Source: an uncultured Holophagales bacterium
GTDB taxonomy: Bacteria > Acidobacteriota > Thermoanaerobaculia > Multivoradales > UBA5704
Length of the DNA stretch: 64,000 nt
Direction: 5' to 3'
NCBI GenBank assembly: GCA_963842525.1
Contig: CAWJGT010000003.1
Coordinates: 1,312,001-1,376,000, forward strand
Shown here: positions 35,443-48,642 of the stretch, piece after piece
Layout of the letters: each line of letters starts with the position of its first letter
Numbering within the stretch: the first letter of the stretch is position 1
The notes under the pieces: model-generated
What the model saw: the letters and a program-made list of their open reading frames with translations, nothing else
Told to the model about the DNA's origin: nothing
Databases searched by the model: none
Position numbers and translations under genes: made by a program

Positions 35443-36068
35443 AGTCTGTGAAGATCTCGTCCACCAGCGGCTCGAAGCCGGGCAGGATCTCGGAGCGGGC
35501 CGTTTCGCCGGGACCGGATTTATCGAAGAAGCTCGTAGGCGCCACGGCGCAGCACGAAGACTTCGACGATCTGCTTTTTCGGGTCCGCCATCCAGACCTC
35601 CCGCACTCCTGCCTCGGCATAGAGGCCGAGCTTGGTTTTGCGGTCGTACTGCTGGTTGGAGGGGGACAGAATCTCGACGATCAGATCTGGCGCACCTTCA
35701 AGGAATTGCTCCTTGAGCAGATGCCTGCGCTCGCGGGTCAAGAACAGCAGATCCGGCTGGACCGGCGTCGCCAGCTCCTTCGGGAGGATCACGTCGAGCG
35801 GGGCGAAGAGATAGATGCCGAACGGGTGATCCTGCAGAAACAACCCCAAAAGGAAGGAGAAGTTGCGCAGAGCTGCCTGGTGCTTCGGATTCGGCGCTGG
35901 CGGCACGTAGAGCACCCCCCGGAGGACCTCGTAGCGCCGGCCGTCGTCCGGCAGGCGGCAGTAGTCCTCGTACGTCCACATTCCCTGCTTGGGAAACTCC
36001 CCGGCCTCCGCCGGCCAGTCGGTCGCGGAGATCGGAACCTGGACGCGATAGGCGGCTCTGGAAGACAT
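35441..36068 (-). CDS. Uma2 family PD-(D/E)xK endonuclease (apparent frameshift near 35525)
   Basis: WTYEDYCRLPDDGRRYE, VQPDLL, GAPDLIVEILSPS and YAEAGVREVW motifs; the shifted frame supplies DKSGPGETARSEILPGFEPLVDEIFTD*. Confidence 0.88.
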
Positions 36069-36183: not shown

Positions 36184-36399
36184 TCAGGCGGCTGTGACGG
36201 TAATCGTCGGGGCTGGATCGACGACGACAGGTTTGTAGCACTTCGTGTTGCAGTCGTTCTCGACCTTGCACGAGTGGCAGCCGGAGCCGGCGCAGGTGCT
36301 GGTCGCCGCTGCAGCACCATGGACGTAGTACATCACGTAGTCGTCCAGGTTTCTCAGCGTCTCCCGGCTCAAGCCAAGCCGCTTCTGGTTCCTTTTCAT
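36184..36399 (-). CDS. Lanthipeptide-like precursor peptide
   Basis: RBS AAGGAG; leader KRLGLSRETLRNL; VHGA double-Gly-like site; core rich in Ser/Thr with 5 Cys; directly downstream of lanC. Confidence 0.8.
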   Translation of the reverse strand: MKRNQKRLGLSRETLRNLDDYVMYYVHGAAAATSTCAGSGCHSCKVENDCNTKCYKPVVVDPAPTITVTAA

Positions 36400-36472
36400 C
36401 CTGATCTCCTTCTTGAAAAGGTTGATGGCTTCGGAGTCGTCCGGTTTGGACGCATTCTCTGAGAGCCTCTTA

Positions 36473-37787
36473 CTAGGAATGGTGCTCGCCGTCTGCTCGA
36501 AGGGACAAAGAGGTCGGGATCGAAGTGAGGAGGCAGGCGTCCCAGGCGGGTTCCAGGTCCGAGATGGCGGCGAGGAGAGCGAGAGCGATCCCGGCCGCCC
36601 CTTCCAGAAATCCCGCCTTGTCGTGCCAGATGCTCACGTCCGCTCGGCCAGGTTCCGAGGTGTGATAGCGAAAGCCGCCGATCCCGCCCTCCTGCCGGAA
36701 GGAGAGCGCCCTCTCGTACCAGGTCTGCGCCGCCTCCCGGAAGAGCTCCTCTCCCGTGGCTTGGAAAAGGCGGTTGAAGAGGTGTCCGGTACCGGCAGCC
36801 CCGTGACAGAGGCAGGCGTCGAAGACCATGGCTCTGTCGAAAGGCCGCTGAGTGGCGGTGCGGGCGATGACCAGGGCCTCGTCCGCCCAATCGCCGTGGC
36901 CGAGCACGCGGGCGGCGGAGAGGATCGCCAGGGACACCCCCGGATCTCCATAACACCACGCGATGCGCGAGGGACCGAGCCATTGGCCAGGCACCGCATA
37001 GCTGCAAAAAGCCATCCCTGACTGTCTGGGCAGGCGCTGAGCGAGCAGCCAGGGAACCGCTCCCTCCAGGAGCTTCCCGGCAGATCTCCGGGTGGGCTCC
37101 GGCGATGAGAGCCCGGGCCAGGAGCGCGACCACGCCCGGTCCACCGTGGGCCATGCCCAGGTTGAAACAGCCGTCCGGGCACTCCTCTTTCATCGAGTCA
37201 AAGACGAGCCCCGGCGGGGTGAACCAGGAGATTCCGTGGGGCCCGCGGCGAGCCAACTCGGCCAGGATTTCGACGACCGCCTCGAGCCTCCGCAGGGACC
37301 CTTCGTCATGCAGGCGTTCCAGGAAGTAGACACCATGGCCCGACAGGCCGTGCATCAAGTCGAAGGGATACTGCCAGGGCCGTCGCGCATGAAGGCGTTC
37401 GAGGGCAGCGTCTACGTCGCTCTCGCCTTCGTCGGCCTCGCCATAGAGCCGCTGCAGATGGGCCTCCACCCAGGCCACTCCCGTGAAGCCCGTAGCGAGG
37501 GTCGGGTCGGCCGGGCGGGTGGCAAGCTCTTCAGCAGCCCGGTCCAGGCAGCGGCCGGCGTGATCGCTCGCACCGGAGAGAAGGCCGGCCTGGTCGAGAT
37601 AGGCGAAGAGAAGGGACAGCCCGGCCCAGCCCTCGGCGAGAGAAGGGCCGATCTTGCGTAGCCAGGTGAGCTCCTCCCGCCGGAGGATGTCACGAGCGAC
37701 ATCCTCGATGGCAGCACGCGCCTGGTCAGCCAGAGCTCCTTCGAGCACGGGCCTCCACGGTCTGGCCTCGGCTTGCTGCTGGAACAT
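36473..37787 (-). CDS. lanC: Lanthionine synthetase LanC family protein (apparent frameshift near 37077)
   Basis: SLAEGWAG, FDLMHGLSG, NLGMAHGGPG, RIAWCYGDPG, CLCHGAAG and GFLEGAAG motifs; ATG overlaps the glgA stop (TGATG). Confidence 0.9.
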
Positions 37788-39244
37788 CACCCCGCCAGCC
37801 GTTCGTAGATCCCTAAATATTCCTTGCCCTGGACGTCCCAGGAGAAGTCCTGGGCCATGCCGTTGGCCATCAGGCGCTCCCAAGCGGGACGGTCGGCCCA
37901 GGTGTCGAGGGCGGTGTCGAGGGCCCAGCGGAGGCCCTGGGCGGTGAAGTGCTCGAAGACGAAGCCGGTACCGTGGCCCGTCGCAGGGTCGAAGGGCTGG
38001 ACCGTGTCGGCGAGTCCGCCCGTCTTGTGGACCACGGGCGGCGTGCCGTAGCGCAGGCTGTAGAGCTGGTTCAGGCCGCAGGGCTCGAACTTGGACGGCA
38101 TCAGGAAGAGGTCGGACCCCGCCTCGATCCAGTGCGCCAGCTCGTTGTTGAACTCCCGGAAGAACCGCGCCTGCGCCGGATACCACCGCGCCAGACGGCT
38201 GAAGAACGTCTCGTATCGGTCCTCGCCGCTCCCCAGCGCCACCACCCGGACGTCGCGCCGGTCGAGCAAGTCCGGCAGCACGTCGAAACAGAGGTCGAAC
38301 CCCTTCTGCCAGGTGAGGCGGGAAACGAGGCCGATCACCGGCGCGTCGGAGTGTTCGTTCAAGCCGACCCGGCGGAGGAGGCGCCGCTTCATCTCCCGCT
38401 TGCCCCACAGGTCCTCTGGTGAATAGTGGACCGGGATGTACGGATCGTGCACCGGGTCCCATTCGCCGTAGTCCACGCCGTTGACGATCCCGGCCAGCCG
38501 GCTGGTGCGGGCGCGCAGCAGCCAATCCAGGCCGAAGCCGTGCTCGGGCGTCTGGATCTCGGCGGCGAAAGTGCGGCTCACCGCGGTCATGAAGTCGGCG
38601 TGCAGGAGGCCGGTCTTCAGGAAATTGGCGTGGCCTGCCAACAGGTCCGCCCCGTCCAGCCAGTAAGCATGCTGCGCGAGACCGAGCTCGTCGAGCGCGC
38701 TGGTGCCGACGAGCCCCTGGAAGGCGACGTTGTGGAGGGTCAACACCGTGCGCGTACGGTCGAACAGGCGGTCCCAGGAGTACAGGCCCTTGAGGTAGAT
38801 CGGCGCCAGGGCCGTGTGCCAGTCGTGCGAATGGAGGATGTCCGGCGACCAGCCCATGCGCTGGCAGATCTCGAAGACGGCCCGGGTGAGCACGGCGAAG
38901 CGCAGCCCGTCCGCCCAATCGCCGTGGTAGATCCCCTCAGGGCCGAAAAGCGGCGGACAGTCGACGAAATAGACGTCGACCTGGCTGTCCGGCAGCTTGG
39001 TGGTGAGGACCGAGAAGCGGAAGAGCCGCGAGCCCATGCCGACGTGCAGGTCGCGCAGGAAGTCGACCTGGGTGAAGCGCTCCGGGCGGCGGGCGACCTG
39101 GCCGTAGAAGGGGAGGAAGACGCGCACGTCGTGCCCGGCGCGGCCGAGGAAGCGGGGGAGGCCGGCGGCCACGTCCCCGAGCCCGCCGGTCTTGGCGAAC
39201 GGCGCCACCTCGGCGGCGATCTGGCAGACCCGCAGGGGGCGCAC
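37787..39244 (-). CDS. glgA: Glycogen synthase
   Basis: EVAPFAKTGGLGDV, HSHDWH, GIVNGVD, SRLTWQKG and MPSKFEPCGLNQ motifs. Confidence 0.96.
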   Translation of the reverse strand: MRPLRVCQIAAEVAPFAKTGGLGDVAAGLPRFLGRAGHDVRVFLPFYGQVARRPERFTQVDFLRDLHVGMGSRLFRFSVLTTKLPDSQVDVYFVDCPPLFGPEGIYHGDWADGLRFAVLTRAVFEICQRMGWSPDILHSHDWHTALAPIYLKGLYSWDRLFDRTRTVLTLHNVAFQGLVGTSALDELGLAQHAYWLDGADLLAGHANFLKTGLLHADFMTAVSRTFAAEIQTPEHGFGLDWLLRARTSRLAGIVNGVDYGEWDPVHDPYIPVHYSPEDLWGKREMKRRLLRRVGLNEHSDAPVIGLVSRLTWQKGFDLCFDVLPDLLDRRDVRVVALGSGEDRYETFFSRLARWYPAQARFFREFNNELAHWIEAGSDLFLMPSKFEPCGLNQLYSLRYGTPPVVHKTGGLADTVQPFDPATGHGTGFVFEHFTAQGLRWALDTALDTWADRPAWERLMANGMAQDFSWDVQGKEYLGIYERLAG

Positions 39245-39245
39245 C

Positions 39246-40514
39246 TCAGATCACCGTGCCCGGCGTAATCAACGCGTTCTTGTGCACCACGATGATCCGG
39301 TCGCGGATCGACCAGTGCTCGCTGTCGGCGTTCTCCACTCCCGCGGCATTGATCAGCTTGCAGCCGTCGCCGATGCGGGCGTTGAAGTCGATGATCGTGT
39401 TGCGCAGGTGGCAGTCCCGGCCGATCCCGATGGGGATCTGGCTGCTGTCCGGCGGCGGGTCGGCCTCCAAGTTGTTGGCTCCCATGACGATCGAGCGCTC
39501 GATCACCGAGCCGGAGCGAACCACGGCGCGGATGCCGATGATCGAGTCGGCGATGTGGCTGCCGGAGAGGATGCTCCCCTCGGAGAGGATCGAGTACCGG
39601 ACCGAGCACTCGTTGACCTTGGTCCCCGGCAGGAAGCGCGGGTGGGTGAAGATCCGCAGCTCCGGGTCGTAGAGGTTGAGCGGCGGCAGCGGCAGCGTGA
39701 GGTCGAGGTTCGCCTGGTGGAAGCTGGGGATCGTGCCGATGTCGGTCCAATAGCCGCCGTGGGGATAAGCGTAGACGCTGTACTGCGCGAGCGCCTGTGG
39801 GATCACCTCGCGGCCGAAGTCGACGGTCGAGGTGCCGACCAGCAGCTCGGTCAGCACCTCGGGCTTGAAGATGTAGATCCCCATGCTGGCGAGGTACGAG
39901 CCCGGCGGCGCCGGAAAGCCGAGGGCGGCCTGGGTCTGGTCGTCGAGGGCGACGGCGTCGAGCAGCTCGGGCTCTTTGGGCTTCTCGACGAACTCGACGA
40001 TCCGGCCGGACGGGTCGAGGCGCAGGATGCCGAAGGCGGAGGCCTCCTCGCGGGTCACCGGCTTGACCGCGACCGTGATGTCGGCGCCGCGCTCGCGGTG
40101 AGTCCGCACGAGCTCCGAGATGTTCATCAGGTAGAGCTGGTCGCCCGAGAGGATGAGGACCTCGGAGGGGTCGTCCTCGACCAGGCGCGGCAGGCACTGG
40201 CGGACCGCGTCGGCGGTGCCCTGGTACCAGTCGCGGCGGTCGATCGTCTGCTCGGCCGCAAGGATGTTGACGAAACCGAGGCTGAAGGCGCTGAAGCGGT
40301 AGGTCTGCGCGATGTGGCGGTGCAGGCTGGCGCTGTTGAACTGGGTGATGACGAAGATCCGGTCGATCCCCGCGTGCAGGCTGTTGCTGATCGGGATGTC
40401 GATGAGCCGGAACTTCCCGCCCACCGGCACCGCCGGTTTGGCCCGATGGCGGGTCAAGGGCCACAAGCGGGACCCCTGGCCTCCACCCAGAATGGCTGTG
40501 ACGATCCGCTCCAT
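39246..40514 (-). CDS. glgC: Glucose-1-phosphate adenylyltransferase
   Basis: ILGGGQGSRLWPLT..RAKPAVP, WYQGTADAV, FVEKP, ASMGIY and YWTDIGT motifs. Confidence 0.96.
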   Translation of the reverse strand: MERIVTAILGGGQGSRLWPLTRHRAKPAVPVGGKFRLIDIPISNSLHAGIDRIFVITQFNSASLHRHIAQTYRFSAFSLGFVNILAAEQTIDRRDWYQGTADAVRQCLPRLVEDDPSEVLILSGDQLYLMNISELVRTHRERGADITVAVKPVTREEASAFGILRLDPSGRIVEFVEKPKEPELLDAVALDDQTQAALGFPAPPGSYLASMGIYIFKPEVLTELLVGTSTVDFGREVIPQALAQYSVYAYPHGGYWTDIGTIPSFHQANLDLTLPLPPLNLYDPELRIFTHPRFLPGTKVNECSVRYSILSEGSILSGSHIADSIIGIRAVVRSGSVIERSIVMGANNLEADPPPDSSQIPIGIGRDCHLRNTIIDFNARIGDGCKLINAAGVENADSEHWSIRDRIIVVHKNALITPGTVI

Positions 40515-40580
40515 GACCGCACCCCCCTGAGAGCGGGGGTATCCTACCGCAGGAGCGGGTCTGCGTGGGTGCCCTCGCTT

Positions 40581-41405
40581 CTACCAGGTCCCATGCTGGT
40601 AGAGCACCTGGCCTCCGACCGTGAGCTGGAACCGCTTGATGGTCGCCAGCCAGATGTTGGGGTCCAGCTTGAAGGTGGCGGGATGCTCGGCCGGGCCATC
40701 CGGGACCCTGAAGTCGAACTCCTTCTTCCAGGTGACGAAGCTCCCGCCCGTCCCGACCACGACGCCGTCGAGCTTGATCGACTCGGCTCCGACGGCCTTG
40801 GTCATCTCGTGACAGAACTCGACGGTATGCTGCCCGTGGGACAGGTGGACCCGGATTACGATCCGGGACATGCTTTTCTCGACGAGCTCCGCGTGCCAAC
40901 GCTGCTTCGTGGGCTTGGCGGGTTTCTGCGCAGGCTGCTTCTGGGAAGGTTGCTTCTGCGAGGCTTGCTCTTGAGGAACGGGACGGGAGGGCTCGCCGGA
41001 GGGCTTCTGGGAGGAAAGGCCCAGTCTCTTCTCGAGACCTGCCAGCAGGCGGTCCAGCTCGGGATGGGACGGTTCCCCTGCCCAGTCCGCGAGATCGACG
41101 GTCTGGAGCTGTCCGAACCCAAGGGGCAGACCGACCTCCTCGATCCGGACGGGGAACAGCACGCCGCGATCTGCCGCCTGGCCGGCTTCGTCCTTGACCC
41201 ACCGCGACTGGACCGACGCCTTGGACCATAGGACGATGACCGCCTGTGCCGCGGTCAACGATGCAGCGATGACCTCTTCGAAGACCTCGCCCGGGAGGAC
41301 CTGCCGGTCCCACCAGACAGCGATGCCCCGCCGGCCCAGGGCCTCGGCCAGCAGTTTCGCCTTGTCCCGATCCTCGCGGGCGTAGCTGACGAAGACGTGG
41401 TGCAT
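40581..41405 (-). CDS. TIR-domain protein with Q/P/K linker and beta-rich C-terminal domain
   Basis: VFVSYARED, VWWDR and VLWSKASVQSRWVKDEA motifs (conserved Glu present). Confidence 0.88.
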   Translation of the reverse strand: MHHVFVSYAREDRDKAKLLAEALGRRGIAVWWDRQVLPGEVFEEVIAASLTAAQAVIVLWSKASVQSRWVKDEAGQAADRGVLFPVRIEEVGLPLGFGQLQTVDLADWAGEPSHPELDRLLAGLEKRLGLSSQKPSGEPSRPVPQEQASQKQPSQKQPAQKPAKPTKQRWHAELVEKSMSRIVIRVHLSHGQHTVEFCHEMTKAVGAESIKLDGVVVGTGGSFVTWKKEFDFRVPDGPAEHPATFKLDPNIWLATIKRFQLTVGGQVLYQHGTW

Positions 41406-41482
41406 GCAGGCTCGTCGCAGGATGCTCGTTGAACCCTATCCTACTGTAAGGCGACGCTGGGCGGGTTTGTGATGCACCCAGC

Positions 41483-41881
41483 TCAGCGGACGACGTCGAT
41501 CTCCACTCCGACCTGCAGCTCTTTCCAGACCTTGTCCGTCGTGACGGCTGGCAGACCGAGCTCACCAGCCAGCGCGAGGCAGGCCCGATCACCGAGAGAG
41601 AGGCCGAGGTGGCGTGTATCGGCTCGCAGAAAAGCGGTCCGCTCCGCATGACGCGCGGTGAACGCCACGATTCGCAGCCCGAGAGCCTCCAGATCCTGCT
41701 GTAGACCGCTCACTTCGACCTGCTGGTCGAGGGTCTTCTGAACGACCTCCGACCAGTTGACGCTGGACATCGCCGCACCTTCCAGCAGACCCTGGACCCT
41801 ATCCCCGCCAGGCTCCCGATGCAGCATCGCCAGGAGAGCCGATGCATCGAGCACGCAAGCAGCATCCTCGGCGGAGGTCAT
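41483..41881 (-). CDS. VapC family PIN toxin
   Basis: VLDASALLAML, SVNWSE, LSLGDRACLALA and TTDKVW motifs. Confidence 0.92.
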   Translation of the reverse strand: MTSAEDAACVLDASALLAMLHREPGGDRVQGLLEGAAMSSVNWSEVVQKTLDQQVEVSGLQQDLEALGLRIVAFTARHAERTAFLRADTRHLGLSLGDRACLALAGELGLPAVTTDKVWKELQVGVEIDVVR

Positions 41882-42144
41882 TTCTTTGCCTCTCGTCTCG
41901 CTTCGACCCGCCTCTCGGCAATGAGCTCGTCCGAGAGGTTGACCTCGGCCGGCACCTTGGCGAACCGCTGGCGTAGCCGATGAAGGACTGCCTCCCGCTT
42001 CTCCAGGACAAGGCGGTGGTCTTCTACTACGGCAAGAAGGACGTCTCCCTGGCTGATCCCCATCTCACGACGGATCTCGGAAGGAATGACCAACCGTCCC
42101 TGGGGGCCGATCGTCACGGTCGTTGGGCTCGACAGTTTCTCCAT
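41878..42144 (-). CDS. AbrB/MazE family antitoxin
   Basis: TVTIGPQGRLVIPSEIRREMGISQGDVL and LSDELIAERR; 4-bp overlap with vapC. Confidence 0.9.
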   Translation of the reverse strand: MEKLSSPTTVTIGPQGRLVIPSEIRREMGISQGDVLLAVVEDHRLVLEKREAVLHRLRQRFAKVPAEVNLSDELIAERRVEARREAKK

Positions 42145-42155
42145 AGGATCTCTAT

Positions 42156-42203
42156 TGTGCCACGCGGAGCCCAAGTGTGCCACGGCATTCGAGATGTGGC
42201 ACG
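42156..42203. promoter_or_regulatory. Putative autoregulatory operator of the abrB-vapC operon
   Basis: TGTGCCACG at 42156 and 42176, plus inverted GTGGCAC at about 42196, just upstream of the antitoxin start. Confidence 0.5.
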
Positions 42204-42248
42204 CATGGAGAGCCTGCGCCTGGACCGGTGCGAAGGTAGAATCCACAT

Positions 42249-42950
42249 ATGGCCGCTTCCCCCCGCCGCCCCCTCCACTGCGACTTCCTCGGCCGCATTC
42301 CCTATCAGGAAGCCGTCGAGCGACAGCTCGCCGTGCGCGACGCCGTGAAGCGGGGTGAGGGCCCGGAGCATCTACTCCTGCTGGAGCACCCGCACGTCTA
42401 CACCCTGGGGCGCAACGCCACCCGGGCCGATGTCCTGGCCAGCCCGGAGTGGCTCGCGGCGCGGGGCGTCGAGATCGCCGAGTGCGACCGCGGCGGGCAG
42501 GTCACCTACCACGGGCCGGGGCAGCTCGTGGGCTATCCCGTGGTCAATCTGAGCCCGGACCGGCGCGACGTGCGGCGGTACGTCCGCGATCTCCAGGAGG
42601 TGCTGATCCGGATCCTGGCGGACTATGGCGTCCAGGCCGAGCCCCGCGACGGCCAGGCCTTCGTGGGTGTCTGGGTGGGGGAGGACAAGATCGCCTCGAT
42701 CGGCGTCCACCTCTCGCGCTGGATCACCACCCACGGTTTTGCCTTGAACGTCTCGACCGATCTCGCCTACTTTGCCGGGATCGTCCCCTGCGGCCTCAAG
42801 GGCCTCGGCCTGACCTCGATCGAGCGGCTGACCGGCCGCGCTCCGTCCTTGCCGGAGGTGGCTTCTGTCTGCGCCCGGCACTTCGCCGAGGTCTTCGATC
42901 GCGAATCTGGGAAGGGGGGAGCTTGGAGCCCAGAGTCGCTATCGGCCTGA
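42249..42950 (+). CDS. lipB: Octanoyltransferase
   Basis: LLEHPHVYTLG, DRGGQVTYHGPGQLVGYP, KIASIG, HGFALN and IVPCGL motifs. Confidence 0.96.
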   Translation: MAASPRRPLHCDFLGRIPYQEAVERQLAVRDAVKRGEGPEHLLLLEHPHVYTLGRNATRADVLASPEWLAARGVEIAECDRGGQVTYHGPGQLVGYPVVNLSPDRRDVRRYVRDLQEVLIRILADYGVQAEPRDGQAFVGVWVGEDKIASIGVHLSRWITTHGFALNVSTDLAYFAGIVPCGLKGLGLTSIERLTGRAPSLPEVASVCARHFAEVFDRESGKGGAWSPESLSA

Positions 42951-43909
42951 ACGCGGTGATCGTGGCGGTGACCGAAGAGGTCCCGCGCATCCTGACCGTC
43001 AGCTCGCGATCCACCCCCTCCGGCCGCGACAGCGCGGAGGACGAGGAGGCCCTCCCCTTCGGCCCCCTCGACCCGGAGGTCGACCGCACCCTCGACCGCG
43101 GTTTGCGCCGCTGGGTCCACGAGCAGACCGGCCTGCCTCTGGGCTACGTCGAGCAGCTCTACACCTTCGGCGACCGCGACCGCGATCCCCAGGCGGGAAA
43201 GAAGGGGCTTCGCGAAGTGTCGGTGGCCTACCTCGCCCTGGTGCGGGAGGTCTCGGTACGCCTCGAAGCCCGCTGGCGGGACTGGTACGAGTTCTTGCCC
43301 TGGGAAGACTGGAGGAACGGCCGCCCGCCGCTGATCGACCGCCTCATTGCTCCGGCCCTGGACGCCTGGATCGCGGCGGCCCCTGACACCCACCTGCGCC
43401 AGGAGCGCCGCGAGCGGGCGGACATCGTCTTCGGGCTGGGCGGCGCGTCGTGGGACGAGGAGCGGGTGCTGGAGCGCTATGAGCTCCTCTACGAAGCGTC
43501 CCTGGTCCCCGAGGCCTGGCGCGACCGTGCCGTCCGCGACCCGGCAGCCGCCTCGGTTCCTCCGGACCCCTTTCCCGGCCTCCCCATGGCGGTCGACCAC
43601 CGGCGCATCCTCGCCACCGCCCTCGGCCGGCTGCGCGGCAAGATCAAATACCGTCCGGTCGTCTTCGAGCTGCTGCCCCCCACCTTCACCTTGCTCCAGC
43701 TCCAACGGGTCGTCGAAGCCCTGGCCGGCACCCGACTCCACAAGCAGAACTTCCGCCGCCTCGTCGAGAACGCCGGCCTCGTCGAAGGCACCGGCCGGCA
43801 GGACGTCCAGACCGGAGGCCGTCCGGCCGAGCTGTTCGTCTTCCGCCGCGACGTCCTGCGCGAGAGGCCTGCTCCCGGAGTCGGGCTGCCCCACGTTCGA
43901 CGGGTGTAA
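42923..43909 (+). CDS. nadQ: NadQ/NrtR-like NAD biosynthesis regulator (degenerate Nudix plus wHTH)
   Basis: TTG start after GGGGGAG; IGLNAVIVAV, YVEQLYTFGDR, WYEFLPWEDWR, VLERYELLYEA, RLRGKIKYRPVVFEL and LHKQNFRR motifs; upstream of nadABC. Confidence 0.85.
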   Translation: MEPRVAIGLNAVIVAVTEEVPRILTVSSRSTPSGRDSAEDEEALPFGPLDPEVDRTLDRGLRRWVHEQTGLPLGYVEQLYTFGDRDRDPQAGKKGLREVSVAYLALVREVSVRLEARWRDWYEFLPWEDWRNGRPPLIDRLIAPALDAWIAAAPDTHLRQERRERADIVFGLGGASWDEERVLERYELLYEASLVPEAWRDRAVRDPAAASVPPDPFPGLPMAVDHRRILATALGRLRGKIKYRPVVFELLPPTFTLLQLQRVVEALAGTRLHKQNFRRLVENAGLVEGTGRQDVQTGGRPAELFVFRRDVLRERPAPGVGLPHVRRV

Positions 43910-44019
43910 TACGGCTCAGGCCCGAACCTGCTGCAGCCACCCAAACCAACCCACAAAATTTAGCGAAGACCTTCAGAAGTTTGTCAGGAGCGTCTCCACA
44001 CTGTTCTTCGCCCGACCTT

Positions 44020-44433
44020 CAAAACCGGCAGTTCCAGGACAAGATTCGCAGCCACACCGGGCGCACCAACGGGCACAGCCTCCAGCGGATCATCGCGGAC
44101 CTGGTATCGATCCAGCGCGGCTGGTTTGAATACTTCAAACACAGCCACTGGTCGACCTTTGAGCAACTGGACAAGTGGATCCGGATGCGGCTTCGCAGCA
44201 TCCTGCGCCACCGCCAGAAGCGCAAGGGGAGATCCCGGGGCCGCGATCACAACCGCTGGCCGAAGACCTTCTTTGCTGAGCTTGGGCTGTACTCCTTCTA
44301 CGCAGCCTACGCCCAGACCCGTCAACCCTCTCGGAGGTAAGACCACCAACCGGAGAGCCGGATGCGGGAGATCCGCACGTCCGGTTCGGAGGGAGGGGGG
44401 ACCGGGTAAACAACCGGTCCTCCCTACCCCTAT
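44020..44433 (+). mobile_element. 5'-truncated group II intron (maturase tail plus domains V and VI)
   Basis: Maturase-like FQDKIR...RGWFEYF...LDKWIRMRLRSIL...FFAELGL; DV GAGCCGGATGCGGGAGATCCGCACGTCCGGTTC at 44355-44387; DVI ending CTACCCCTAT. Left boundary approximate. Confidence 0.9.
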
Positions 44434-44497: not shown

Positions 44498-44831
44498 CAC
44501 CTGCCTTTGCGGCTTCGCTACGGCCGCTCGGCCAAAGATACGTGGCGCGGGCTCTGCGTCACCTGCCTCTGTGGCTCCGTCACTGCCGCAGAGCCAAAGG
44601 CAGTGACTCTGGCTCCGCGGCATCTGCCTTTGCCGCTCCGTCATGGACGGAACGCCAGAGGCTTTAGCCGCAGCTTCACTGCCACCTGCCTTTGCCGCTC
44701 CGTCACAGCCGCAGAGCCAAAGGCATCGCCTTTGCCGCTCCGTCACGGGCGGAGCGCCAGAGGCTTTAGCCACAGCTTCACTGCCACCTGTCTTTGCCGC
44801 TCAGTCATTGCCGCAGAGCCAAAGGCAGGTG
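44498..44831. repeat. Array of about six palindromic ~42-bp units with ~20-bp linkers
   Basis: CACCTGCCTTTGCCGCTCCGTCA...GCCAAAGGC units at about 44498, 44560, 44621, 44683, 44727 and 44784. Confidence 0.82.
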
Positions 44832-45124: not shown

Positions 45125-45143
45125 TATGCTCAGGATGAGCATA
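45125..45143. promoter_or_regulatory. NadQ-type operator
   Basis: Perfect palindrome TATGCTCA-GGA-TGAGCATA before the nadA RBS; a degenerate copy TATGCTCA-GTT-GTAGTATA at 45064-45082 overlaps the promoter. Confidence 0.8.
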
Positions 45144-45161
45144 GCCGATAGGAGGGGTGCC

Positions 45162-46184
45162 ATGAGCCTGCAGCAAGCCCGGTTGGAGTACACCCCGGAC
45201 GTCGCGCTTCGGACTGCCCCGATCTACGACCGGGTCCGCTCGGTCATCCCCGACTTCGAGTGGCCGATCCATGCCCCCTATGTGGACCGGATCAACGAGC
45301 TCAAGGCGCAGCGCAACGCCGTGATCCTGGCCCACAACTACCAGACGCCGGAGATCTTCCACGGCGTGGCCGACTTCGCGGGCGACTCGCTGGCTTTGGC
45401 CCAGTTCGGTGCGAAGACCGAGGCGGACGTGATCGTCCTGGCCGGGGTCCACTTCATGGCCGAGACGGCGAAGATCCTGTCTCCCGAGAAGACAGTCCTC
45501 ATCCCGGACCTGGAGGCGGGGTGCTCTCTCGCCGCGTCGATCACGGGGGCGGACATCCGCCTGCTGCGGCAGCGCTACCCCGGGGTGCCGGTGGTGACCT
45601 ACGTCAACACGTCCGCCGAGGTGAAGGCCGAGTCGGACATCTGCTGCACGTCGGCCAACGCCGTGGCGGTGGTCGAGTCGCTCGGCGTGCCGCGCGTGAT
45701 CTTCCTGCCCGACGAGTACCTGGGCAAGTACGTGGCGTCCCAGACGGATGTCGAGCTGATCCTCTGGAAGGGGCACTGCGAGGTGCACGAGCGTTTCACC
45801 GGCGAGCAGCTCCGGGCCTACCGGACGGGGCAGCCGGACCTCCAGATCCTGGCCCATCCGGAGTGCCCGCCGGACGTGCTGGCCGAGGCCGACTTCGTGG
45901 GCTCGACCGCGGCCATGATCCGCCATGTGGGCGAGCACCGGCCGCGGCGGGTGGTCATGGTCACCGAGTGCTCGATGAGCGACAACGTGGCCGTGCAATA
46001 TCCGGACGTCGAGTTCGTCCGGCCGTGCAACCTCTGCCCGCATATGAAGCGGATCACGCTGCCCAAGATCCTCCGGTCGCTGGAGACGATGCAGCACGAG
46101 GTGCACGTCGACCCGGAGGTAGGGGCGCGGGCGAAGCTGGCCGTGGAGCGGATGCTCGCGGTCGGCCGCCGGGAGGGCAAGTGA
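45162..46184 (+). CDS. nadA: Quinolinate synthase
   Basis: RBS GGAGG; [38 protein letters not shown] and CPHM motifs. Confidence 0.96.
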
Positions 46185-47794
46185 ACGATCCCCTGGAAGG
46201 CCGATTCGACAGCGTGTCGAGGTCCGATATCCTGGTCGTAGGGACCGGCGCGGCCGGGCTGACGGCCGCTCTCGGCTGCGCCCCGGCGCGGGTGACGGTG
46301 CTCACCAAGTCGACGCTGGTCAGCGGCTCCAGCCCGTGGGCGCAGGGAGGTGTCGCCGCCGCGATCGGGACGGACGATGCGCCGGCCCTGCACGCGGCCG
46401 ACACCATGACCGCCGGGGCGGGGCTCAACGATCCGGTGGTGGTCGATCTCCTGACCCTGGAAGGGCCGGAGCGGGTCCGCGCGCTCGTGGACATGGGTGC
46501 CCGGTTCGACCGCGACGCCGCGGGGCAGCTCGCCCTCGGCCGCGAGGCCGCGCACAGCCGGCGCCGCATCCTGCATGCCCGGGACACGACCGGCTCGGAG
46601 ATCGTGCGCACCCTGGCCGAGGCCGTGCGGCATGCGCCCGAGGTCGAGGTTGTGGAGGGCGCCTTCGCCGTCGATCTCGTCCTGGAGGGCGACCGGGTGG
46701 TGGGCGTGCTGGCGGTCCACGGTGAGGGGCGGCGGGTGCTTCATCTCGCTCCGGCCGTGGTCCTGGCCACCGGTGGGCTCGGCCGCCTCTATCTCCATAC
46801 GACGAACCCGCGCGAGGCGACCGGCGACGGCCTGGCCATGGCGGCTCGGGCCGGCGCGCGGCTGGTCGACCTCGAATTCGTCCAGTTCCACCCGACCGCG
46901 CTCGCGGCCGGCGGCGATCCCATGCCATTGCTGACCGAGGCACTGCGCGGCGAGGGGGCGGTGCTGATCGACAGTCGGGGGCATAGATTCATGGTTGACG
47001 AGCATCCGGACGCCGAGCTCGCTCCCCGTGACGTGGTGGCGCGGGCGATCTGGCGCCGGCAGATGGCGGGGGAGCGGGTCTTCCTCGATTCCCGTGCGGC
47101 GGTGGGGGAGACCTTTCCGGATCGCTTCCCGCAGGTCTTCGAGCTCTGCCGCGAGCGGGGGATCGATCCCCGCGTCGAGCCGGTCCCGGTCGCTCCCGCC
47201 GTGCACTACCACATGGGCGGCATCGCCGTGGACCTGGACGGCCGCACCTCGCTTCCCGGGCTCTGGGCCTGCGGCGAGGCGACCGCCACCGGCGCGCACG
47301 GAGCCAACCGGCTGGCGAGCAACTCGCTGCTGGAGGCCCTGGTCTTCGGCGCTCGCGTGGCCGAGGATCTGCGGACCGTGGTGTCCACAGCCGGTGATCC
47401 GGATACACGTGACCTGCGGATAGCCGTGGGTCCGAGCGGCGTCCAGGCGCCGGGAGACGGCGAGCTGATCGCGACGGTGCGGCGGCTGATGTGGGAGAAG
47501 GTCGGGCTCGTGCGCGACGAGGAAGGGCTGGCGGCCGCTCTCGAAGAGCTGGAGGTCCTGGCCGAGCGGCATCGGAATGCGGCGGGGGAGGCGCGCAACC
47601 TCCTCGGCGTGGCCCGCCTGCTGACCGCCGCGGCCCTGGCCCGGCGGGAGAGCCGGGGCGGGCACTTCCGCGCCGATTTCCCGACGCCGGACCCGTCCTG
47701 GCAGCGGCGCCTGTTCCTCACCGCGGCACCGGACGGCTCGGCCCGGTTCGAGGAGCCGGTCCTCCCCCTGCTGGCTGCGGGGCTCGCGCGATGA
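46181..47794 (+). CDS. nadB: L-aspartate oxidase
   Basis: [40 protein letters not shown] and [13 protein letters not shown] motifs. Confidence 0.95.
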
Positions 47795-48642
47795 GCGACC
47801 GTCTGCCGCCGCTCGTTCCGCTGCTCTATGAGCCGTTGGTCCGGCGCGCCCTGGAGGAGGACCTGGGGAGGGCCGGGGACCTGACCAGCGACGCGGTCCT
47901 GCCTCCGGATCTGCCCGGCGAGGCGAAGATCGTGGTCCGCCGGGCCGGCCGGATCGCCGGGCTGGACGTGGCCGTCGCGACCTTCCGGCTGCTCGACGGC
48001 TCCATCCAGGCGCAGAAATTACAGACCGATGGCGAGGACGCCGAGGCCGGCGCGGTCCTGGCGACGTTCCAGGGCCCGGCCCGTTCGCTGCTCACGGCCG
48101 AGCGCACGGCGCTCAATTTCCTCGGCCGGCTCTGCGGCATCGCCACGGCGACCCGCGACCTGGTGGCGGTCGTGGCTCCTCACGGCGCGCAGGTGGTTTG
48201 TACAAGGAAGACCACTCCCGGGCTGCGAACCCTTGAAAAATACGCCGTCCGGGCCGGCGGCGGCGGCAATCACCGCTTCGGGCTGGACGATGCCGTGCTG
48301 ATCAAGGACAACCACCTGGCGCTGGCCGGAGGGATCCGGAAGGCCGTGGAGCGCGCCCGCCGTCATGTCGGCCATCTCGTGAAGATCGAGGTCGAGGTGG
48401 ACTCCCTGGACCAGCTCCGCGAGGCGCTCGACCTCGGCGTGGACGTGGTCCTGCTGGACAACATGGACCTCGATACGTTGCGCGAGGCGGTCAGGCTGGC
48501 CAAGGGCCGCGCCCTGACCGAAGCCTCCGGGGGGATCCGTCCGGGCACGGCCGCCGCCATCGCCGCGACCGGCGTGGACCTGCTTTCAGTGGGCTGGCTC
48601 ACCCACAGCGCGCCGGCGCTGGATGTGGCGTTGGATATTTGA
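47791..48642 (+). CDS. nadC: Nicotinate-nucleotide diphosphorylase (carboxylating)
   Basis: ERTALNFL, TRKTTPGLR, NHRFGLDDAVLIKDNH, LLDNM and EASGG motifs. Confidence 0.96.
   Translation: MSDRLPPLVPLLYEPLVRRALEEDLGRAGDLTSDAVLPPDLPGEAKIVVRRAGRIAGLDVAVATFRLLDGSIQAQKLQTDGEDAEAGAVLATFQGPARSLLTAERTALNFLGRLCGIATATRDLVAVVAPHGAQVVCTRKTTPGLRTLEKYAVRAGGGGNHRFGLDDAVLIKDNHLALAGGIRKAVERARRHVGHLVKIEVEVDSLDQLREALDLGVDVVLLDNMDLDTLREAVRLAKGRALTEASGGIRPGTAAAIAATGVDLLSVGWLTHSAPALDVALDI

Follow-up and report, generated by a model that had tools for sequence, protein, structure and literature searches.

Does the likeness between the C-terminal part of a bacterial TIR protein and the animal Fas apoptotic inhibitory molecule (FAIM) reflect common ancestry, and what would such a domain do behind a TIR domain? 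The question is raised by a gene in a 64,000-nucleotide stretch of DNA from an uncultured Holophagales soil bacterium (GenBank assembly GCA_963842525.1, contig CAWJGT010000003.1, positions 1,312,001 to 1,376,000), called the window here. The encoded protein consists of an N-terminal TIR_2 domain, a disordered linker of about 40 residues and a C-terminal nine-strand beta domain of about 105 residues. This architecture of a TIR plus a FAIM-like domain and the homology to FAIM are considered probable. For the best explanation as a whole, which adds to architecture and homology a mechanism as a one-gene conflict effector, the probability is put at roughly 0.5. The gene and its parts are as follows:

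40581-41405, minus strand: whole open reading frame, 274 residues plus stop, coding for the TIR domain, a flexible linker and the FAIM-like domain (listing of open reading frames)
41022-41405, minus strand: TIR domain, residues 1-128 (Pfam TIR_2, Foldseek, family profile against SARM1)
41187-41189, minus strand: codon GAA of Glu73, the putative catalytic Glu of a W-x-x-x-E motif (alignments)
40899-41021, minus strand: linker, residues 129-169, rich in Pro, Gln, Lys and Ser and predicted to be disordered (low predicted local distance difference test score, pLDDT)
40584-40898, minus strand: all-beta domain resembling FAIM's N-terminal domain (NTD), residues 170-274, nine strands (AlphaFold2, Foldseek, family profiles)

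The open reading frame is taken to be a real gene, since its GC content at third codon positions (GC3) of 0.85, rising to 0.92 in the C-terminal part, fits a window with 68.7% GC; its start methionine is common to the homologues P0002 and L022 (the latter being the gene on a metagenome contig described further below). The full-length AlphaFold2 model, built on a 29-row alignment, has a mean pLDDT of 88.4, with values of 49-56 across residues 131-160 in the linker, a region that also differs in length and sequence between homologues. Neither a signal sequence nor a membrane segment was predicted in the 274-residue protein. The strings from which a preliminary description of this DNA had proposed a TIR-FAIM-like fusion (WVKDEA at residues 69-74, IRVHLSHGQHTVEFCH, IKLDG, ATFKLD and FQLTVGG) all occur in the frame, and the C-terminal domain that it had placed at about residues 180-274 is present, with slightly longer bounds (170-274).

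The relation of this domain to FAIM was addressed with two profiles, A2 (13 sequences) and A5 (30 sequences, domain only), searched against 177,635 distinct PDB sequences. In both cases the human FAIM-NTD (3mx7_A) ranks first, with an E-value of 0.0025 for A2 (84 profile positions) and of 0.0014 for A5 (22 bits; the alignments span 83-84 profile positions), so that the similarity to a bona fide FAIM is significant but modest. Among the 14 positions conserved in at least 70% of the family, 10 are identical in human FAIM by a hand count on the A5 alignment, namely the L and H of LSxxxHxIE, V-D-G, F, G, A, L and G. The AlphaFold2 model of the domain, based on A2, has nine strands, a pLDDT of 95.5 and a predicted template modelling score of 0.87. 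When it was compared by Foldseek with 350,542 PDB chains, 3mx7 was the sole match at E ≤ 1e-3 (E 8.8e-4, probability 1.00, TM 0.59/0.68, 25% identity over 97 columns), the second-best match having an E-value of 0.34, and the two-sheet antiparallel beta fold of FAIM-NTD is recognised through this match. The preliminary description had seen the FAIM likeness in strings that it gave for the animal protein, which agree with chain 3mx7_A as printed by HMMER, and it had named a profile or a structural match to FAIM as the test; matches of both kinds were found, FAIM-NTD being the best PDB match in each search. As a lead only, the second-ranking entry in a language-model atlas (score 0.86) is a bacterial cluster with FAIM1 in 11% of its members, and this was the sole Pfam family among the nearest atlas clusters; for bacterial proteins that do pass FAIM1, the atlas points to actinobacterial ones of about 89 residues. 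No match at E ≤ 0.001 was found in the BFVD viral structure library.

Several observations weigh against this homology. The profile E-values are modest, around 1e-3, and in the A5 search the runners-up 3sik ("conserved domain protein", E 0.078) and At1g79260 (E 0.098) follow about 6 bits behind 3mx7_A. A single-sequence phmmer search of PDB with the 105-residue domain gave nothing at E ≤ 10. The Pfam FAIM1 model (PF06905), the use of which had also been proposed in the preliminary description, matches six of the 29 family members at E ≤ 1, with the highest score for P0058 (E 3.6e-4, 20.7 bits, profile positions 7-56, in the N-terminal domain), but the cut-off of 22 bits is reached by none of the 29 family members tested, and for the window protein and its C-terminal part there is no match even at E ≤ 10. 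FAIM1 was likewise not found in the whole genome of the window. By the present definition of Pfam FAIM1, the C-terminal domain does not belong to it. Nor can the structural match count as wholly separate evidence from the sequence similarity, because AlphaFold was trained on PDB and had seen 3mx7. Lastly, the domain has nine strands, compared with the eight described for FAIM-NTD in the accessible part of a FAIM review (PMC6628066), and differs from FAIM in being present only once, with one more strand at its N-terminus, and in having a TIR domain tethered to it. The sole Pfam match of the C-terminal domain, EarA with an E-value of 0.075, was dismissed as noise.

These points could be read as an unrelated beta-sandwich having converged on a FAIM-like fold, in which case the window protein would be a bacterial TIR protein of the ordinary kind whose C-terminal domain is an orphan. 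The unreached FAIM1 gathering score, the extra strand, a TM-score that is only moderate, and profile E-values of about 1e-3 with other beta proteins at 0.08-0.1 would all agree with it. Yet the same PDB entry is singled out by sequence-profile and structure searches, the residues in common fall on the most conserved positions of the family (L-S-x-x-x-H-x-I-E, V-D-G, F, G, A-x-I and L-x-x-x-G), and the reverse search with the FAIM1 model does pick up the six relatives. Convergence is thus regarded as rather unlikely, and the C-terminal domain as a likely remote homologue of FAIM-NTD, judging from profiles and a predicted model.

The N-terminal part matches Pfam TIR_2 (PF13676) with an E-value of 2.5e-24 and 86.5 bits, well over the cut-off of 28, across residues 4-120 and profile positions 1-121 of 122. 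Its flavodoxin-like TIR fold is confirmed by a Foldseek search of PDB with the full model, which gave 151 matches at E ≤ 1e-3; all those among the matches listed are TIR structures or TIR-containing proteins, and they include AbTir (7uxu, top, E 1.2e-6), Hydra TRR-2, SPARTA, MyD88, SARM1 and TIR-STING. In the search of PDB with the family profile, the best matches are the TIR domains of the NAD+ hydrolase SARM1 (E 5.9e-13), and the family motif "...dwvkaE..." is aligned with "DWVHKEI" of SARM1, the Glu of which we take to be E642. In single-sequence alignments, Glu73 is aligned with the corresponding Glu of BtTir (E 9.7e-5) and of oyster TIR-STING, and its column is occupied by E in 21 of 21 occupied rows of the family alignment A1. 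The Glu of WVKDEA, which had been proposed from the outset to be of the catalytic type, is therefore lined up with the catalytic Glu of SARM1 and BtTir. From these alignments the domain appears to be of the NAD-cleaving type, and the protein is predicted to have NADase activity.

Weaker TIR matches point in a second direction, in which the domain would be a signal generator like ThsB of Thoeris, producing an isomer of cyclic ADP-ribose, or a nucleotide akin to it, for an effector whose gene lies at another place. The W-x-x-x-E motif is there, and below their cut-offs the Pfam ThsB_TIR model (20.6 bits, cut-off 21.2), the PADLOC ThsB models (E 1e-5) and NCBIfam ThcB4 (E 1.7e-10, 40.3 bits, cut-off 220) all match the protein, as does PADLOC SAVED_TIR (E 1.2e-13). 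However, every ThsB-type score stays under its curated cut-off, the best profile matches are SARM1-type NAD+ hydrolases, and no SIR2, Macro or SLOG domain was found by Pfam in the 15 neighbouring open reading frames scanned, so that no ThsA-type effector is encoded nearby and the protein is not placed in Thoeris. We find such a signalling role unlikely.

How widespread the C-terminal domain is, and which partners it has, was assessed by an exhaustive phmmer search of 1.84 billion cluster representatives, which gave 33 proteins at E ≤ 1e-3. Four candidates were rejected: P0052, P0065 and P0071 have no score with the family profile and P0061 only 11.8 bits, and their Pfam content is that of beta-propellers or other surface repeats. 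This leaves 29 credible representatives, the majority of them TIR fusions, and the family is rare. Word-indexed homologue searches returned only the protein itself and P0002 with the domain, and only P0056 with the A5 profile. A search of genome and metagenome contigs with the single domain found nothing, while a search for related loci with the alignment A4 found one metagenome contig of 1504 bp (L022) and nothing in genome contigs. When a profile was scanned against a 401-genome sample of the phylum, no genome but that of the window showed the FAIM-like part; all matches away from the locus in the window cover profile positions 2-73 only, which correspond to the TIR tail of some A2 rows. Among 10 members looked up in their clusters, 9 are derived from metagenomes, the exception being P0044 (an NCBI record of a metagenome-assembled genome), and 9 form single-member clusters; most of the members looked up are on contigs of 1-6 kb. 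The contigs of P0002, P0044 and P0045 measure 6.1, 13 and 4.3 kb. Two soil metagenomes yielded short pieces, near-identical or of 96% identity.

Alignment A1 has 29 rows, the window protein and 28 relatives. Pfam TIR_2 is found in 17 of them, while seven others start within the end of the TIR domain and look, from the alignment, like truncated copies from short contigs because of that. Four are short proteins in which no N-terminal domain was recognised. In P0044, from Chloroflexota, the FAIM-like domain stands behind an EAD7 domain (E 7e-16). A further fusion outside A1, P0045 (490 residues, from a metagenome), has an Hsp70 nucleotide-binding domain (E 3.8e-38, profile positions 102-373) directly followed by the FAIM-like domain at residues 389-490 (117 bits, profile positions 2-104), which here occupies the usual place of the Hsp70 substrate-binding domain.

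This last fusion is the strongest hint that the FAIM-like domain could be a polypeptide-binding or self-assembly module. TIR NADases, among them SARM1, TIR-STING, SPARTA and Cat1, are activated when partner domains cluster them. The TIR-FAIM-like protein may be a one-gene conflict effector of the abortive-infection type, in which the FAIM-like domain would be a non-enzymatic binding or assembly module. It would bind a polypeptide trigger, such as an invader protein or a misfolded or aggregating one, or else self-associate, and the flexible tether would let it gather TIR domains; their clustering would activate the NADase, and the cleavage of NAD+ would lead to arrest or death of the cell. Some published observations are compatible with this. 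FAIM-NTD behaves as a dimer according to the accessible part of the FAIM review (PMC6628066), and FAIM counters protein aggregation as reported in available portions of two further papers (PMC9570119, PMC7047752). As far as the accessible text of Kaur et al. 2020 (PMC7159879) goes, effector-associated domains (EADs) are homotypic coupling adaptors, and EAD7 is among those recruiting effectors. A homodimer prediction of the FAIM-like domain scored 0.00 in two runs for which controls were not run, and was used neither for nor against the proposal.

There are also arguments against a role in conflict. No known defence system was recognised, since the PADLOC matches span the TIR part only and none is above its curated cut-off. 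The flanking genes are housekeeping ones (glgC/glgA and lipB). The genome of the window (G000, 9.95 Mb) contains 84 TIR_2 matches, in open frames of 81 to 1498 residues with varied partner regions, several of them in tandem (e.g. C9:1902639-1904139 and C4:162232-163012), which implies that many TIR proteins may serve roles besides phage defence. A defence or cell-death role is what we infer from sequence, and the clustering mechanism is put forward tentatively, at slightly less than even odds.

The surroundings of the gene bear on these questions, and the features concerned are the following:

37787-39244, minus strand: glgA, beyond glgC
39246-40514, minus strand: glgC, downstream neighbour of the TIR gene
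40515-42248: stretch of 1.73 kb from the start of glgC to that of lipB, inserted when compared with a genome from the same family
41483-41881, minus strand: PIN-domain VapC-type toxin, in the same insertion (Pfam PIN, E 1.9e-13)
41878-42144, minus strand: AbrB/MazE-type antitoxin, VapB-like, with an internal Met as start in a frame that is open to 42246 (Pfam MazE_antitoxin, E 8e-9; NCBIfam AbrB, E 1.7e-9)
from 42249, plus strand: lipB, divergent, beyond the antitoxin gene

The order of genes along the minus strand is thus antitoxin, PIN, TIR gene, glgC and glgA. In G266, a genome from a sister genus within the same family, glgC (C29:7147-8403, minus strand) and lipB (C29:8484-9140, plus strand) are also divergent and lie only about 80 bp apart, and it is because of this adjacency that the 1.73 kb with vapB, vapC and the TIR gene are regarded as an insertion. 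The TIR-FAIM-like gene is accessory. A search around the insertion for flanking direct or inverted repeats of the kind that marks mobile elements gave only short repeats at chance level, and none of the short contig pieces from the two soil metagenomes contains a joint across it. The GC3 is 0.72 for vapB, 0.73 for vapC and 0.85 for the TIR gene, compared with 0.88-0.95 for the core neighbours.

The comparison of gene neighbourhoods comprises one extra locus with flanks, that of L022. A gene for a TIR-FAIM-like protein of 273 residues is located there at 246-1067 on the plus strand, followed on the same strand by tRNA-Thr(GGT) at 1293-1367 and by the start of tuf (EF-Tu) at about 1400-1504; with a tRNA gene next to it, this may be a site of integration. 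No PIN domain was detected in the 245 bp upstream of the gene (tblastn E 2.2).

The position of the TIR gene directly downstream of a VapBC pair had been seen in the preliminary description as part of a candidate defence or cell-death module. The pair is there, with its PIN and AbrB/MazE-type genes, but at the one further locus recovered the link is not seen, and a functional connection is unsupported. A module VapB-VapC-TIR, with the TIR gene as its third member and the toxin-antitoxin pair either controlling the TIR protein or cooperating with it, would agree with the three genes being co-oriented, with the 77 bp between the PIN stop and the TIR start, and with all three being contained in one 1.73 kb insertion between glgC and lipB. 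The lower GC3 of vapB and vapC suggests, however, that they and the TIR gene have separate acquisition histories; at L022 the neighbours are tRNA-Thr and tuf, with no PIN upstream; and the spacer before the TIR gene contains TAGGAT, resembling a -10 element, which may be a promoter of its own. Such a module is held to be very unlikely, and the VapBC neighbourhood of the TIR gene looks incidental from sequence comparison.

On the other side of lipB there are genes of NAD metabolism:

42449-43909, plus strand: NrtR-type regulator (NrtR_WHD, E 3e-20), about 1.5 kb from the TIR gene
45126-46184, plus strand: nadA (E 1e-115), with nadC 4-7 kb from the TIR gene
47491-48642, plus strand: nadC (QRPTase, E 1.9e-60)

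NrtR responds to ADP-ribose, which is a product of TIR NADases. The TIR-FAIM-like protein could consequently have a housekeeping or stress role, for instance as a proteostasis sensor that cleaves NAD+ to ADP-ribose and feeds the neighbouring NrtR-controlled NAD regulon. The short distances to the regulator (about 1.5 kb) and to nadA and nadC (4-7 kb), the metabolic genes that flank the TIR gene and the reported action of FAIM against protein aggregation would all be in keeping with this. On the other hand, the gene is missing from the same junction in G266, and the scan of 400 further genomes from the phylum did not find it, which is a misfit with a housekeeping role; vapBC and lipB stand between it and nrtR, and the neighbours at L022 differ. 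As the TIR gene belongs to an insertion and has other neighbours at L022, its proximity to the NrtR and NAD genes may be due to chance, and a housekeeping role is the least probable of the alternatives considered. The reading as an accessory conflict effector is the preferred one.

Some further observations were made around the insertion. The octamer GTAGGATA occurs on the minus strand both at 41437-41444, about 35 nt before the start codon of the TIR gene, and at 40540-40547, about 25 nt before that of glgC. In G266, GTTAGGATAC is found before glgC (L023 2951-2960), and in both the window genome and G266 lipB has TAGAAT near its ATG. These sequences could be promoter elements resembling -10 boxes, followed by short leaders. 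Downstream of glgA lies a LanC-like gene (36473-37700, minus strand; LANC_like E 4.6e-21 on the open reading frame 36473-37144), which appears split over two frames near 37100-37180, its N-terminal part being in the frame of the open reading frame 36396-38918; it is either a frameshifted pseudogene or the result of a sequencing error. Between it and a gene for the E2 component of a 2-oxoacid dehydrogenase, a Uma2-family putative restriction-endonuclease-like protein is encoded at 35520-36068 on the minus strand (E 1.5e-33). Between nrtR and nadA there is a lone fragment of a group II intron maturase (43981-44340, plus strand; GIIM E 1.8e-14, 119 residues), in an open reading frame without the reverse-transcriptase part, followed at 44498-44827 by tandem repeats of periods 62 and 102 with scores up to 355. 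The fragment and the repeats look like debris of mobile elements.

In the literature searched, neither a FAIM-like domain from bacteria nor a TIR-FAIM fusion was described; one apparent match for FAIM proved to be the mass-spectrometry term FAIMS. The word FAIM is absent from the main text of Kaur et al. 2020 (PMC7159879) and of its 2021 sequel, the supplements of which might list the domain under another name. Animal FAIM has been described as being without significant sequence homology to any known protein. While the TIR side of the protein appears ordinary, the FAIM link would be the part of interest, and it rests on statistics that are consistent but modest. With a bacterial relative, FAIM would for the first time have a domain context that is informative, consisting of a TIR NADase and, in sister proteins, of an effector-recruiting adaptor or an Hsp70 ATPase domain, and would join those parts of animal death and immunity that have prokaryotic kin. 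The fusion is a hint of bacterial relatives of FAIM with ties to immunity. The fusions suggest a job for the FAIM fold, either in binding polypeptides or in driving assembly. For bacterial immunity, the domain would be a partner not described before for TIR effectors, and the genome that encodes it has a TIR set of unusual size (84 matches). Going further, animal FAIM might share ancestry with a rare prokaryotic domain for polypeptide binding or assembly that has been wired to a TIR NADase, an EAD7 adaptor and an Hsp70-type ATPase. In that case eukaryotes would have reused a sensor from bacterial conflict systems for FAIM's action against apoptosis and aggregation, and the TIR-FAIM-like proteins would act as single-gene sensors of immunity, converting the detection of aberrant or foreign proteins into NAD+ destruction. 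This wider scenario is a speculative one and we hold it to be somewhat doubtful.

Compared with known systems, the protein is closest on its TIR side to SARM1, TIR-STING, TIR-SAVED (Cap4-like), the TIR-APAZ of SPARTA and Cat1, with which it would share a TIR domain of the NAD-hydrolase type with its catalytic Glu. As in effectors of the SARM1 and TIR-STING type, a TIR domain and a partner domain on one chain fit the rule of activation by clustering. The partner is, however, not SAM/ARM, STING, SAVED, APAZ or CARF but a FAIM-like beta domain, and none of the adjacent genes codes for a cyclase, an Argonaute or a CRISPR partner. With Thoeris ThsB, AbTir, BtTir, PdTIR and BtpA the protein has Pfam TIR_2 in common, AbTir being its top structural match, whereas it lacks a ThsA-type partner next door, scores below the cut-off of the ThsB models, and carries a C-terminal domain unrelated to the coiled-coil or other extensions of these proteins.

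The likeness to the NTD of animal FAIM (3mx7) lies in the common motifs L-S-x-G-x-H-x-I-E-F, V-D-G, A-x-I and L-x-x-x-G. Animal FAIM, as presented in the accessible part of its review (PMC6628066), differs in being a stand-alone protein in which the NTD is joined to a similar C-terminal domain with no enzyme attached; in place of this tandem of about 180 residues, one copy is found here at the C-terminus of a TIR protein. Finally, the window protein differs from the EAD-coupled effectors in being without an EAD and having no STAND, vWA-MoxR or GTPase core gene nearby, while its relative P0044 resembles them: going by the available text of Kaur, Burroughs, Iyer and Aravind 2020 (PMC7159879), the FAIM-like domain behind EAD7 would there stand in the position of a recruited effector or signalling domain.

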